Source of the DNA: Escherichia coli
Lineage (GTDB): Bacteria > Pseudomonadota > Gammaproteobacteria > Enterobacterales > Enterobacteriaceae
NCBI RefSeq assembly: GCF_048403405.1
Contig: NZ_CP183129.1
Strand: one strand, 5' to 3'
Length of the DNA: 64,000 bases
Shown here: in pieces, positions 47,930-55,624 of the stretch
Layout of the letters: the number at the start of each line of letters is the position of its first letter
How positions within the stretch are numbered: position 1 is the first letter of the stretch
The notes under the pieces: model-generated
The model's database searches: none
The model's input: only the letters and a program-made list of their open reading frames with translations
What the model was told of the DNA's origin: nothing
Translations under genes and position numbers: made by a program

Positions 47930-50163
<2,234 letters not shown>

Positions 50164-50220
50164 AGGAAATACATCGCGTTAAAACGGAGGAAGCGCCGCC
50201 CGAAAGCGGCGCGAAAGGAC

Positions 50221-51510
50221 TTAGCTGAACAGAGAGTAGAAGATTGCGGAGATTGCAATCAGACCCATCACGACAACGAATACGTTGCTGATGTGACCGC
50301 TGTACTTACGCATTGCCGGTACTTTCTGAATTGCGTACATCGGCATCAGGAACAGGATCATCGCGATGATTGGGCCGCCCAGGGTTTCAATCATACCCAG
50401 GATGCTCGGGTTCAGGGTGGCAACAATCCAGGTCGTTACCAGCATGAACAGCGCAGTGATACGGTTCAGCTTGTTGATTTCGATAGACTTACCTTTACCA
50501 CGCAGAGATTTAATCACCATACCGTTGAAGCCTTCACGTGCGCCCAGGTAGTGGCCGAGGAAGGATTTGGTGATAGCGATAATCGCGATAATCGGAGCCA
50601 TCCACGCGATAACCGGTGCGTTAAAGTGGTTAGCCAGGTAAGACAGAATCGAGATGTTCTGCTCTTTAGCCGCAGCCAGGTCTGCCGGAGTCAGGCTCAG
50701 TACGCAGCTGAATACGAAGAACATTACGGTCAGCACCATCATGATGTGTGCGAATGCCAGGATCTTCGAGCATTTCTGTTCTGCCATATCGCCGTACTCT
50801 TCACGCTTCGCAACAGCGAAAGAAGAGATGATCGGAGAGTGGTTGAACGAGAACACCATTACTGGAATTGCCAGCCACAGGGTCATCCACAGACCGTTTC
50901 CGGTTGCCGATGCAGTGTCCAGAGACAGCGTTTCCAGTGCTGCGCCGTTCCACTGCGGGATCAGGTACAGAGCCAGCAGCATCAGTACGCCAACAAACGG
51001 GAATACCAGAATACTCATCGCTTTAACGATCATCTGCTCACCGAAGCGAACGATGGTCATCATACCCACGATCAGGATCAGCGACAGAATCGCACGCGGC
51101 GGTGGTGTCATACCCAGCTGATGAGACATGAAGCTTTCAACTGTATTGGTGATTGCCACGCTATAAACCAGCAGGATCGGGTAGATAGCGAAGAAGTAGA
51201 GCAGGGTAATCAGTTTACCTGCGCCAATACCAAAGTGTTCTTCTACAACCTCGGTGATGTCTTCGCCTGGGTTTTTACCAGACAGTACGAAGCGAGTCAG
51301 GCCGCGGTGAGCAAAAAATGTCATCGGGAACGCAAGGATAGCCATGATGATCAGCGGGATCATACCGCCAACACCGGCGTTGATTGGCAGGAACAGCACG
51401 CCCGCGCCGATTGCCGTGCCGTAAAGGCCCAGCATCCACATGGTGTCTGTCTTGCGCCAGGCACTACGAGAGTCTTTCGACGCAATCGTGCTGGTTTGAG
51501 TCGTTTCCAT
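50221..51510 (-). CDS. sdaC: serine:H+ symporter
   Basis: 429-aa polytopic ORF. Confidence 0.95.
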
Positions 51511-52065
51511 CTATTTCTCCTGGAGGAATGCAAATAATTCAGCTTTTAGCCAGTTCAGCCCGGGAAGGTGCCTGACCGTAAAAATGAAATCTGTCTATCG
51601 GCGATGGCTTAATCATTTACCGCCGTAATAATTTGAGGGCGGAAAGATACACACAAGTTATGTATCTATCAGTGATCTTGATCCCAAATACAATAATCTA
51701 CTTGGAAGATAGATTATCCCAACGCTTTACTCTGTAAATCAAAAGTAAAAGAGAATTTAAGGGCAATATTTGCCCATTAAACGACATCTGACTTCTTCCG
51801 GGGCGCGCAATATATGTAGGTTGAACTGAAAAAATCAATACTTTTAGTTAATCATGGCGATAATTTCTTTTTCATAGCGATAAAATGTGGTTTATGAAAA
51901 TAGGGAAACGTTTGCGTTGCAATATAAATTGTATGACATATTAACTGTGATGATATTTATCGCGTGAGGGTGGTAAGAAACATTCATATAACAAATGAAA
52001 TAAATTGATGGGTATGTGACCAAAAACGAGAAAACCCGGCAACAAACGTCACCGGGGGAGGGAGA

Positions 52066-53430
52066 TTACGTGCAGATTTCGTAGCAAGGGATGTAGGCTG
52101 AGCCTGGCAACTTCATACGATGCTGGGCAACAAAACCCTGTAGCAGGTCGTCCATACGACGCATAATCTCTTTATCGCCGTTGATTTTGTAAGGACCAAA
52201 CTCTTCAATGGCGCGAATACCGACTTCTTTTACGTTACCCGCCACAATACCGGAGAACGCACGGCGCAGGTCGGCAGCCAGCACTTCAACGGGTTGATCC
52301 GGGTAAAGCTTCAGATTAGCCATATTCTCGTGAGAGGGCTCAAACGGCATTTGCAAATCTGGCGCAATGCGCATTGACCAGTTAAAGCTGTAGGCATCGC
52401 CTGTGTCGCGGCGATTTTCTTTCACCAGCGGCATCGATTTTTTCATCTGACGAGCGACTTCAGCGGCGTCATCAATGATGATGCGGTAATGGCGGCGCGC
52501 GTTTTCACCCAACGTATGCACGACAAACTCGTCCAGTACGCGGAAGTAGTCGGCGCTCTCTTTCGGGCCGGTGAGGATCAATGGTAAAACCTGATCTTTG
52601 TTGGCCGGGTTCATTAAAATTCCCAGCAAATACAGCAACTCTTCTGCCGTACCCACACCGCCAGGGAAGATAATGATACCGTGAGCGATACGGACAAACG
52701 CTTCCAGACGTTTTTCGATATCTGGCATGATGATCAATTCGTTGACCAGCGGGTTAGGCGGTTCAGCGGCGATAATCGACGGTTCTGTCATACCAATAAA
52801 ACGACTGTCTTTGTAACGCTGCTGTGCGTGTCCGACCGCAGCGCCTTTCATCGGCGCTTCCATCGCTCCCGGACCACAGCCGGTGCAGATATTCAGCTCA
52901 CGCAGGCCCAGCTGATTCCCGACGCGACGGGCATACAAATACTCGTTTTCGTTAATTGAGTGCCCGCCCCAGCAGACCACCATATTTGGCGCTTCACCGA
53001 CATGCAGCGCGCGAGCGTTACGCAAGATGGAAAAGACCAGGTTAGTGATGTGGACGGAGTTGTCGAGATTCAGGTTGGGAAAACGAACGGTGTTATGGAT
53101 TTGCCCGTAAACGAAGAGAATGTCACGCAGAACCGCGAACAAGTTGGCCTGCAAAGCGCGAATAATTCGCCCATCGACAAAAGCCTCTTCCGGGGGATTA
53201 ATCAGTTCCAGCTTTACGCCGCGTTCACGGCGCAAGACGTTAATATCGAAATTTTCAAAACGAGACAGCAATTCTTTGCTGTTATCGGTCAAACTACCGG
53301 AGTTCAGTACGGCAAGTGAACAGTTGCGAAACAGTTGATAGAGGTCGCTGCTGGCGGTGCGTTTAAGCATATCCACTTCCAGCTGCGACAACATATCCAT
53401 GGAGCCAAGCGGGCTAATATGTGTAATCAA
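52066..53430 (-). CDS. ppnN: nucleotide 5'-monophosphate nucleosidase (LOG family)
   Basis: 454-aa ORF with LOG-family motif (PGGVGTAEE). Confidence 0.85.
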
Positions 53431-53541: not shown

Positions 53542-54390
53542 TTATTGCCGAACCAGTCTTGTGGTCGATGGGACAAAATCGCTATTACTGCGCCACGGGT
53601 TAATGTCCAGACCGCCACGACGGGTATAACGTGCGTAAACGCTCAATTTCTCTGGCTGGCAGAAGCGTAACAGGTCATTAAAGATGCGTTCCACGCACTG
53701 TTCGTGGAACTCGTTGTGATGGCGGAAAGAAACCAGGTAACGCAGCAGTTTTTCTCTGTCAATTTGGCGTCCACGATACTGAATTTGGATCGATCCCCAA
53801 TCTGGTTGATGGGTGATCAGGCAGTTTGATTTCAGCAGGTGGCTGACGAGCGTCTCTTCTACTACTTTTTCGCCACTGGTGGCATTCTCCAGATAGTCAG
53901 TAGTGAATTCATAGTTATCGATAGTGATATCCTGGTCATCAATGCAAGTGCCATTGAAATGACCTATCGGTTGGCCTTCCAGTTCATCAAGACGATATAA
54001 CGCCACGCTAACCTTACCCTGAGCGCAAGTGCTTAAGTCGCGCTCCAGCGTCTGGCGCACCTCATCCCAGTTATTAAAACGCGTCTGGTTAAAACTGTTG
54101 AGATAGAGCTTAAAACTCTTCGATTCAATCAGATTTGCGCTGGTGTAATCAAGTTCAACATGACCGACGGCGACCTGCGGCAAACCTTTCGCATTCAGCC
54201 AGGAAAGTTCATATAGCGTCCAGATATCCGTACCGTGAAAAGGCAGGTTATCCGCTTTCAGACCCAGCGGATCGCGATTCAGACTACGCGGAACGCCTTG
54301 CAGTAGGCTGGCGTCATAGGTATCCCGGTAATCGGTTGATTTTCCAAGAGTCAGGCCCGCAAGTGCCTGATGGTTTGCATAAGAAGACAT
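53542..54390 (-). CDS. queF: NADPH-dependent 7-cyano-7-deazaguanine reductase
   Basis: 282-aa two-domain QueF-type ORF; synteny. Confidence 0.9.
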
Positions 54391-54457: not shown

Positions 54458-55003
54458 GTGGACGATTTGACCGCACAAGCCCTGAAAGATTTTACTGCAC
54501 GCTACTGCGATGCGTGGCATGAAGAGCATAAAAGCTGGCCGTTGAGTGAGGAACTGTACGGCGTTCCTTCACCGTGCATTATTTCAACCACCGAAGATGC
54601 CGTATACTGGCAACCCCAGCCGTTTACCGGGGAACAAAATGTAAACGCGGTTGAACGCGCTTTTGATCTTGTGATACAACCCACAATTCATACCTTTTAT
54701 ACGACTCAGTTTGCCGGGGATATGCACGCGCAGTTTGGCGATATCAAACTGACATTGCTGCAAACCTGGAGTGAAGACGACTTCCGTCGGGTGCAGGAAA
54801 ATCTGATTGGTCATCTGGTGACTCAGAAAAGGCTAAAATTGCCGCCCACGCTATTTATCGCGACGCTGGAAGAAGAGTTAGAGGTCATCTCGGTGTGTAA
54901 TCTCTCCGGTGAAGTGTGTAAAGAGACGCTGGGAACACGTAAACGGACGCATTTAGCCTCAAATCTTGCGGAATTCCTTAATCAACTTAAGCCTCTTCTG
55001 TAA
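54458..55003 (+). CDS. syd: SecY-interacting protein Syd
   Basis: 181-aa ORF upstream of csrB. Confidence 0.85.
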
Positions 55004-55213: not shown

Positions 55214-55580
55214 GTCGACAGGGAGTCAGACAACGAAGTGAACATCAGGATGATGACACTTCTGAAGGACACACCAGGATGGTGTTTCAGGGAAAGGCTT
55301 CTGGATGAAGCGAAGAGGATGACGCAGGACGCGTTAAAGGACACCTCCAGGATGGAGAATGAGAACCGGTCAGGATGATTCGGTGGGTCAGGAAGGCCAG
55401 GGACACTTCAGGATGAAGTATCACATCGGGGTGGTGTGAGCAGGAAGCAATAGTTCAGGATGAACGATTGGCCGCAAGGCCAGAGGAAAAGTTGTCAAGG
55501 ATGAGCAGGGAGCAACAAAAGTAGCTGGAATGCTGCGAAACGAACCGGGAGCACTGTGAATACAGTGCTCCCTTTTTTTA
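55214..55580 (+). ncRNA. csrB: CsrB regulatory RNA (CsrA-sequestering; many GGA motifs; strong intrinsic terminator)
   Basis: Starts GTCGACAGGGAGTCAGACAACG...; roughly 18 CAGGA(U/A)G-type GGA motifs counted by eye; ends with hairpin gggagcactgtgaatacagtgctccc plus T8. Confidence 0.9.
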
Positions 55581-55624
55581 TTCCTGCTATCCTTCGCGGC
55601 AGTTTTTCTTATTGAGGTTGCTTT

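Follow-up and report, generated by a model that had tools for sequence, protein, structure and literature searches.

The AT-rich gap between ppnN and sdaC in Escherichia coli is very probably a multi-input control region and untranslated leader of the sdaCB operon

Results

A long AT-rich gap upstream of sdaC is conserved in enterobacteria

The window, by which we mean the whole 64-kb stretch of Escherichia coli DNA analysed, carries on its minus strand the genes queF, ppnN, sdaC and sdaB in that order, with a 555-bp gap (51511-52065) between ppnN and sdaC (Table 1). sdaC and sdaB form the operon for a serine/H+ symporter and L-serine deaminase II. RefSeq names the two flanking genes as ppnN and sdaC, and neither K-12 nor other E. 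coli carries an annotation between them; over the query, the window is 100% identical to E. coli strain 4621. The GC content of the gap is 37.5%, compared with 50.8% for the whole window, which ranks it among the lowest 3.3% of 555-bp windows in the stretch. Its longest ORFs encode 46, 43 and 34 aa, and no ORF in the gap is conserved. A previous sequence-only reading had described an AT-rich gap of about 555 bp lacking a convincing ORF, and its coordinates, genes and composition were all borne out. The emphasis that it placed on A/T tracts was not, since these show no excess over composition-matched shuffles: A/T homopolymer runs of at least 5 number 4 in the gap against 2.4 +/- 1.5 in the shuffles (P = 0.21), and W-runs of at least 8 number 5 against 4.7 +/- 1.7 (P = 0.55).

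In a list of 48 gaps in the window (median ~65 bp), which is crude, ORF-based and distorted by a spurious 613-aa antisense ORF over sdaC, seven gaps reach at least 500 bp, and the ppnN-sdaC gap belongs to the upper tail without being unique. We then scanned one genome per species and obtained 80 enterobacterial loci with a close SdaC, 76 of which have ppnN directly upstream. Across these 76 syntenic species the gap measures 436-648 bp (median 504) with a GC content of 0.36-0.48; a long AT-rich gap at this place is a conserved property of the 76 enterobacterial species. Of 5426 complete E. coli genomes, 5425 carry the region, in single copy and with 95-100% identity.

To locate constraint within the gap, we aligned 73 non-Escherichia sequences to the window. 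The upstream half of the gap is mostly saturated in this alignment, with sharp conserved islands remaining. The strongest island (51697-51668, ATTATTGCATTTGnGATCnnnGATCACTGAT) holds a CRP-type site (22-mer 51689-51668), and AATGTATCTTTCCG (51653-40) follows downstream at invariant spacing; the CRP site and this core are the only long blocks of the gap with at least 80% majority conservation. Further islands are an AAAATTA block (51619-13) and the ribosome-binding region. Among 11 diverse E. coli, the proportion of variable sites is 1.6% at 51511-51700, 5.0% at 51701-51901 and 9.8% at 51918-52029, with none of the 16 positions of the PurR box varying and none in the two YieP sites, each of which is invariant in these genomes. 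For comparison, 7.9% of third codon positions vary in sdaC and 12.3% in ppnN, and some blocks of the gap are more conserved than synonymous sites.

Table 1 Features of the ppnN-sdaC gap and its flanks, in the direction of transcription (positions in the window)
Feature	Position	Strand	Sequence or detail	Basis
queF	53542-54390	-		
ppnN ORF	52066-53430	-	stop TAA 52068-52066	
ppnN intrinsic terminator	52030-52056	-	hairpin CCCGGTGACGTTTGTTGCCGGG (52056-52035), then U-run	terminator scan
YieP site 1	51982-51996	-	ATTTGTTATATGAAT	sequence from Methods of PMC8282354, located in window
YieP site 2	51927-51941	-	ATATGTCATACAATT	at published IPOD-HR and ChIP-exo peak (PMC8282354)
PurR operator (PUR box)	51902-51917	-	ACGCAAACGTTTCCCT	motif match and published ChIP-chip
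Direct repeat, candidate element	51852-51883	-	TTATCGCTATGA / TTATCGCCATGA, 20 bp start-to-start	repeat search
Distal sigma-70 promoter	51809-51838	-	-35 TTGATT (51838-51833), 18-bp spacer, -10 TATATT (51814-51809)	promoter scan
Inverted repeat	51757-51780	-	TTAATGGGCAA-ATA-TTGCCCTTAA, then U-rich stretch	repeat search
Second promoter-like match	51713-51742	-	TTGATT-18-GATAAT, TG before -10	promoter scan
CRP binding site	51668-51689	-	ATTTGGGATCAAGATCACTGAT, centre 51678.5	motif match, conservation and published CRP dependence
Invariant core	51641-51651	-	TGTATCTTTCC	sequence and spacing from CRP site invariant in 76 loci
Probable leader hairpin SL-B	51599-51625	-	stem CGGCGGU/AUCGCCG, 13-nt loop	MFE fold
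Probable leader hairpin SL-C	51537-51576	-	GUCAGG...CCUGAC in most genera; E. coli degenerate (UCAG/CUGA)	
Ribosome-binding region and ArcZ pairing site	51511-51523	-	CCAGGAGAAAUAG, SD AGGAG 51521-51517	conserved block
sdaC ORF	50221-51510	-		
sdaB	48796-50163	-		

The upstream part of the gap holds the ppnN terminator and sites for YieP and PurR

The gap begins with the end of the ppnN transcription unit. A hairpin of 9 pairs, 6 of them GC, is followed by TTTTCTCGTT, which makes it an intrinsic terminator by structure. A Term-seq study lists a 'primary' 3' end of ygdH/ppnN at K-12 2927709 (PMC7815308 supplement), a position that corresponds by alignment to window 52030, just past this hairpin.

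Downstream of the terminator lie two sites for YieP. The study that identified this regulator (PMC8282354) gave both site sequences, described effects in reporters alongside gel-shift and ChIP-exo results, and used K-12 2927672-2928228 as its cloned version of 'the sdaC promoter'. Outside Escherichia, site 1 is unalignable. Ten bp from YieP site 2 we located a PUR box, a 16-bp imperfect palindrome that matches ACGCAAACGTTTGCGT and is the sole zero-mismatch match to ACGCAAACGTTTNCNT in the window. In the ChIP-chip data of Cho et al., sdaC-sdaB is a PurR region with the motif AGGGAAACGTTTGCGT and a log2 of 2.08 with adenine and 0.83 without (PMC3159470 Table 1), and this motif is identical to the box that we found independently at 51917-51902. 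Most genera retain the box, and which of its half-sites is the better one depends on the lineage (ACGCAAACGATTACCT vs AGCCAATCGTTTGCGT). Our literature search found no report of PurR altering sdaC expression. The YieP site near the PurR site had been used to explain an occupancy peak specific to rich medium; since the PurR ChIP-chip site lies only 10 bp away from it, PurR may contribute to that peak.

Two further elements were noticed near the PUR box. One is a candidate direct repeat, the first copy of which (TTATCG) is partly conserved across genera. The other, suggested by conservation, is a possible third promoter that would overlap the PurR box, with a -10 element TTTTAT near 51888-51883.

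A distal promoter is supported by suppressor genetics

According to Frendorf et al., no sdaC promoter had been experimentally verified to that date. Our scan of the region returned promoter-like matches in numbers not above shuffle expectation. The distal sigma-70 match, whose -35 element is Escherichia-specific and whose discriminator is GC-rich (GCGCGCC), coincides with published mutations. Secondary colonies of a cya mutant carried the insertions +A at K-12 2927924 and +ATT at 2927928 (PMC8546631 Table S1), which correspond to window 51815 and 51811, at or in the distal -10 TATATT; this mapping holds because K-12 and the window show no indel from there to the ATG. The cya-suppressor insertions raised PsdaC reporter activity and allowed growth on serine (PMC10882989). 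The predicted distal start lies near 51804-51797 and would give a leader of ~290 nt that contains the CRP site.

The second promoter-like match falls in the zone of the EcoCyc Lrp site, whose position is that described in PMC8282354, ~200 bp downstream of the YieP peak. Lrp enrichment at sdaC and ygdH has been recorded by ChIP (PMC2689187).

A CRP site at invariant spacing from a conserved core predicts a proximal class II promoter

Published work shows that sdaC expression depends on CRP/cAMP, that cAMP induces it, and that promoter mutations which bypass the need for cAMP are selected in cya mutants (PMC10882989, PMC9765429). The CRP site in the gap fits the consensus, with two mismatches to the TGTGA-N6-TCACA core. 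Matches of this quality are expected by chance in 64 kb nearly as often as they occur (26 expected, 28 found), and the weight of the site therefore comes from its near-invariance: TTTGnGATCnnnGATCACTGA is nearly invariant in the 76 species and forms part of the best-conserved block of the gap.

The 22-mer is separated by 18 bp from the invariant hexamer TATCTT (51649-51644), which places this hexamer exactly at the -10 position (-12 to -7) of a class II CRP promoter. On this geometry and its conservation, we infer a proximal class II promoter with CRP centred at -41.5, a start near 51637 (K-12 2928102) and a leader of ~127 nt. TATCTT is a weak -10 (4/6) with no canonical extended -10, and the ROSE start-site supplement has no sdaC entry. 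The conserved CRP/core geometry predicts a proximal promoter that is missing from public annotation. We also considered the inverted repeat GATACAT-N11-ATGTATC (51670-51642) as a repressor operator, and rejected this as the main reading because its left arm varies between genera.

The leader carries two probable hairpins and the ArcZ target site

Two short hairpins, SL-B and SL-C, can be drawn in the leader downstream of the predicted proximal start. Taken as a whole, the folding stability of either leader is no better than that of shuffles (z = +0.82 and -1.15), and RNAalifold, run on 75 leaders aligned with MAFFT, predicted just 3 pairs. The near-empty RNAalifold result arises because the 3' arms shift register between clades, for which reason we turned to arm-swap permutations and covariance-model realignment. 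The evidence for the hairpins consequently rests on structure-aware realignment and permutation tests; the permutation and count tests ignore phylogeny, and the model-fitted alignment leans towards structure.

In other genera the SL-B stem takes the form UUACGG.../...CCGUAA around an A-rich loop (AAAAUUAUAAAAAA), and its variants include UUGUUACGG/CCGUAAACAA, UACGGGCC/GCCCGU, and GGUAUCGG/CCGGUACU against GGCAUCGG/CCGGUGCU, among others. An E. coli lineage with a variant stem keeps pairing through a G.U wobble. In the arm-swap permutation, native SL-B arms gave -7.97 kcal/mol against -6.34 kcal/mol for cross-species pairs, with 0 of 5000 permutations at or below the native value. In an unfitted seed alignment, 85% of cells pair, compared with 23-48% when the partner is slid; in the covariance-model alignment of 55 orthologues the figures are 78.5% and 21-51%. 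Seven of the 9 pairs change on both sides in the latter alignment, which contains 32 compensatory cells against 15.2 +/- 4.0 in shuffles. For SL-C, the same permutation gave -7.59 against -5.30 kcal/mol, again with 0 of 5000 at or below native, and stem variants include AUCAGG/CCUGAU, GUCGGGUU/AACCCGAC and GCCAGU/ACUGGC. SL-C is absent from leaders of the Klebsiella/Raoultella type, which carry a deletion. A third hairpin, 'A' (CCGCC/GGCGG, 51643-51621), which would compete with SL-B, was rejected (49 of 5000 permutations); its support is weak because its 5' arm is invariant DNA.

Together, these comparisons suggest that SL-B and SL-C are likely real hairpins. Their covariation argues for transcription of at least the ~125 nt that precede the ATG, which would fit a start at or upstream of ~51637. 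As a candidate structured cis-regulatory RNA of the riboswitch-like kind, the leader offers these two simple hairpins with compensatory changes and no multi-helix architecture. Whether they act together is a more tentative matter: SL-B and SL-C could together make up an enterobacterial leader element that acts in cis to set how stable the sdaCB mRNA is or how well it is translated, an idea that we regard as possible but doubtful. If so, Hfq might dock on the A-rich loop of SL-B and let ArcZ act at the ribosome-binding site ~90 nt downstream, or the element might protect the 5' end of the CRP-dependent transcript.

At the downstream end of the leader, ArcZ directly represses sdaC by pairing across the SD region at -13 to -2 (PMC11331407). 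The ArcZ seed AUUUCCCUGG is complementary to CCAGGAGAAAU at -13 to -3, as computed with duplexfold. The energy of this duplex is not distinguishable from shuffles, and the computed pairing is therefore no more than consistent with the experimentally validated ArcZ site (PMC11331407, PMC5222698).

Alternative readings of the gap

Could the gap be, or contain, something other than a control region? The low GC content relative to the flanks would suit foreign or repeat-derived DNA, such as a mobile-element remnant or an H-NS-silenced acquired spacer of no specific function, but we give this idea hardly any credence: the region is single-copy in nearly every complete E. coli genome and syntenic in the 76 species, some of its blocks are more conserved than synonymous sites, and no repeat families occur in it beyond short motifs. 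The unannotated small RNA raised by the sequence-only reading found little to sustain it. Rfam 15 scans up to E = 1 were empty for both strands of the gap and for three orthologous loci, and the sole Rfam match in the window is CsrB (55223-55582), 3 kb away. One candidate would be an independent or attenuated RNA of 50-60 nt that runs from the distal promoter to the GGGCAA-AUA-UUGCCC hairpin and its U-rich stretch (51780-51745). This inverted repeat (51780-51757) does sit 22-46 nt downstream of the predicted distal start and is mostly kept within Escherichia. Against such an RNA, the terminator scan called only the ppnN terminator in the gap and passed over the inverted repeat, Term-seq lists no 3' end between the ppnN terminator and the sdaC ORF (PMC7815308), and the 5' arm of the repeat is unconserved outside Escherichia and altered in two Escherichia species. 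Moreover, up-mutations of the distal promoter boost sdaC expression and growth on serine, so transcription reads through the repeat. We judge a small RNA of this kind to be very unlikely; the repeat, the sole attenuator candidate in the gap, is at most a weak, Escherichia-specific one. Control of sdaCB by a leader peptide, also raised earlier, appears highly improbable. A 25-aa ORF (ATG 51616, stop 51539) is intact in four Escherichia species, and the invariant block offers a mini-ORF that starts at (A/G)TGTATCTTTCC (MYLSA...), with ATG in most genera and GTG in E. coli. Yet the start codon of the 25-aa ORF, which falls within the SL-B loop, is replaced by ATT or a different codon in every genus other than Escherichia, and most of the changes that the ORF undergoes within Escherichia alter the amino acid (S->P, G->S, D->N, S->F). 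The MYLSA ORF, at the invariant (A/G)TGTATC, has no Shine-Dalgarno sequence, differs from genus to genus in frame and length (11-31 aa), ends in unrelated C-termini and lies upstream of the predicted proximal start. Neither ORF is followed by a terminator/antiterminator pair, and the leader fold is unexceptional.

A subtler alternative concerns how CRP would act. The site might work in class I fashion from about -72.5, with a -10 element in the A-rich segment at ~51616-51610 (TATAAA/ATTATA in most genera) and a start near 51604; the inverted repeat that we call SL-B would then be a DNA feature flanking the -10 element and not an RNA hairpin. Near-consensus TATAAA/TTATAA occurs in the conserved AAAATTA block of most genera, and a published comparison with malT, where CRP acts from -70.5, lends the idea some support. 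However, E. coli itself has only AATGAT/TGATTA there, and a -35-like element is missing at the distance required. Compensatory substitutions preserve the complementarity of the arms that flank the segment and not their sequence, which argues for transcription of the arms. A class I arrangement would also leave unexplained why the invariant TGTATCTTTCC stands at exactly class II spacing. For these reasons, we consider it unlikely and retain the class II promoter as the preferred reading.

Discussion

Taken together, our analysis makes it very likely that the gap consists of the ppnN tail, a multi-input control region and the 5' untranslated leader of sdaCB, with no separate gene. The earlier suggestion of a complex promoter and leader bound by global regulators is upheld by published experiments and by our conservation analysis. 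Instead of a single sdaC-proximal start below an unconserved upstream region, which would have spoken against that suggestion, we find that conservation and genetics extend at least 400 bp upstream.

In the arrangement that we propose, ppnN transcription stops at its hairpin and U-run, where Term-seq places the 3' end. Next towards sdaC comes a regulatory zone with the two YieP sites and the PurR box, at which published work has demonstrated binding. Some 300 bp before the ATG, a distal sigma-70 promoter can, on genetic evidence, drive sdaC from a start that we predict, and Lrp, shown by ChIP to bind in the region, would have its site further downstream. The CRP site, at its fixed spacing from the TATCTT core, would then serve the putative class II promoter near 51637, as judged from geometry and conservation. 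Either promoter would give rise to a long leader of ~127 or ~290 nt with two short conserved hairpins, whose ribosome-binding site is masked by the Hfq-dependent small RNA ArcZ, as reported in the literature. Without cAMP, the CRP-dependent proximal promoter would be dead and selection would improve the distal one; the two-promoter picture would thus explain the cya-suppressor genetics. The gap would be long and AT-rich because protein-binding sites and promoters are stacked in it, and the inputs integrated would be carbon (CRP), amino acid (Lrp), purine (PurR), YieP, and oxygen and stationary phase (ArcZ).

This is an ordinary regulatory region, and one largely published already. Our additions are modest: the class II geometry of the CRP site, the closeness of the PurR and YieP sites to each other, and two conserved leader hairpins, SL-B and SL-C, that seem not to have been described before. 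The significance beyond sdaCB is small, yet the locus offers a textbook-style case in which a long AT-rich gap between co-directional genes reflects stacked inputs and not a hidden gene. Through these inputs, serine is taken up and deaminated in step with carbon, amino-acid, purine and oxygen status.

The components can be compared with known systems. Like class II CRP sigma-70 promoters of the galP1 and melR type, the sdaC region has a CRP 22-mer with both TGnGA/TCAC half-sites, a -10-like hexamer 18 bp from it, no recognisable -35 element and cAMP-CRP-dependent expression. It departs from that type in that a GC-rich discriminator follows its weak putative -10 (TATCTT), and in that a second promoter 165 bp further upstream can drive the operon, so that the CRP site would lie inside the longer leader. 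As in the PurR promoters of the purine regulon (purF, glyA, gcvTHP), the operator is a 16-bp PUR box that matches the published ACGNAAACGTTTGCNT, and its occupancy by PurR in vivo is raised by adenine, as published. Whereas the boxes of the purine regulon lie between -35 and -10, that of sdaC is removed from the distal promoter by ~100 bp and from the proximal one by ~270 bp, on the upstream side of both. The ribosome-binding region places sdaC with the published Hfq-dependent ArcZ targets (tpx, sdaC, STM3216), and the ArcZ pairing sequence is conserved here and across genera; ArcZ itself is encoded elsewhere, and its target explains no more than the final ~15 nt of the 555 bp.

At the level of the whole operon, sdaCB is comparable to tdcABC, tnaCAB and dsdXA, which are likewise catabolite-controlled operons for amino-acid uptake and degradation, and as in these systems, inputs from CRP, Lrp and specific regulators converge on a long AT-rich region ahead of the genes. 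Unlike tnaC, sdaCB has no conserved leader peptide or attenuator, and its control seems to be exerted on transcription initiation and by a small RNA.

Potential regulatory elements in the sdaC control region

YieP site 2 is followed 10 bp downstream by the PurR box from ChIP-chip, and the two together occupy 51902-51941. Because rich defined medium supplies purines, PurR may contribute to the rich-medium-specific occupancy peak at this position. The IPOD-HR paper (PMC8282354) ascribed that peak to YieP and gave an Lrp site as the sole annotated site near it.

Past the PurR box, and before the distal promoter is reached, comes a direct repeat. An inverted repeat takes the form GATACAT-N11-ATGTATC in most genera and could be an operator for a repressor, although its left arm differs among genera.

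Coordinates of features in and around the sdaC control region
Feature	Position	Strand	Remark
YieP site 2	51941-51927	-	
PurR box	51917-51902	-	from ChIP-chip
12-nt direct repeat TTATCGCTATGA / TTATCGCCATGA	51852-51883	-	copies 20 bp start to start (about two helical turns)
Inverted repeat AGATACA...TGTATCT (E. coli form)	51642-51670	-	bridges CRP site to putative -10
Open frame	49696-51537	+	613 aa, antisense to entire sdaC
syd	54458-55003	+	
CsrB small RNA gene	55223-55582	+	Rfam RF00018, 382.9 bits, full length

Variation within E. coli

At one locus (L083, 2232-3001 of NZ_CP063459.1, E. coli EM22-18-53), similarity to the window ends just downstream of the CRP site, with the breakpoint at window position ~51665; past it lies a frameshifted IS26 transposase gene, and then sdaC-sdaB-xni' inverted on the far side. 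This locus, seen in one strain only, is an IS26-associated rearrangement in which sdaC is split from its upstream control region.

A sequence variant affects the leader hairpin SL-B, whose 5' arm reads CGGUGGA rather than CGGCGGU in one E. coli lineage (4 of the 11 sampled genomes; positions 51619 and 51622, minus strand). The C-to-U change leaves this position paired, now by a G.U wobble; U-to-A disrupts nothing but the terminal pair.

Possible partial termination within the operon, and neighbouring features

A strong "primary" Term-seq 3' end has been mapped at K-12 2929551 (PMC7815308), corresponding to window position ~50188 (minus strand) in the sdaC/sdaB intergenic region. Since this end lies 3' of the hairpin GCGCCGCTTTCGGGCGGCGC, 25 nt upstream of sdaB, it suggests partial termination within the sdaCB operon, between the two genes.

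The long frame antisense to sdaC is annotated in no E. coli record and is a mechanical ORF; it skewed our crude gene-gap statistics, an ORF-based gap list for the whole window. Farther along the window, the CsrB gene is flanked by syd and yqcC, the same arrangement as in K-12.
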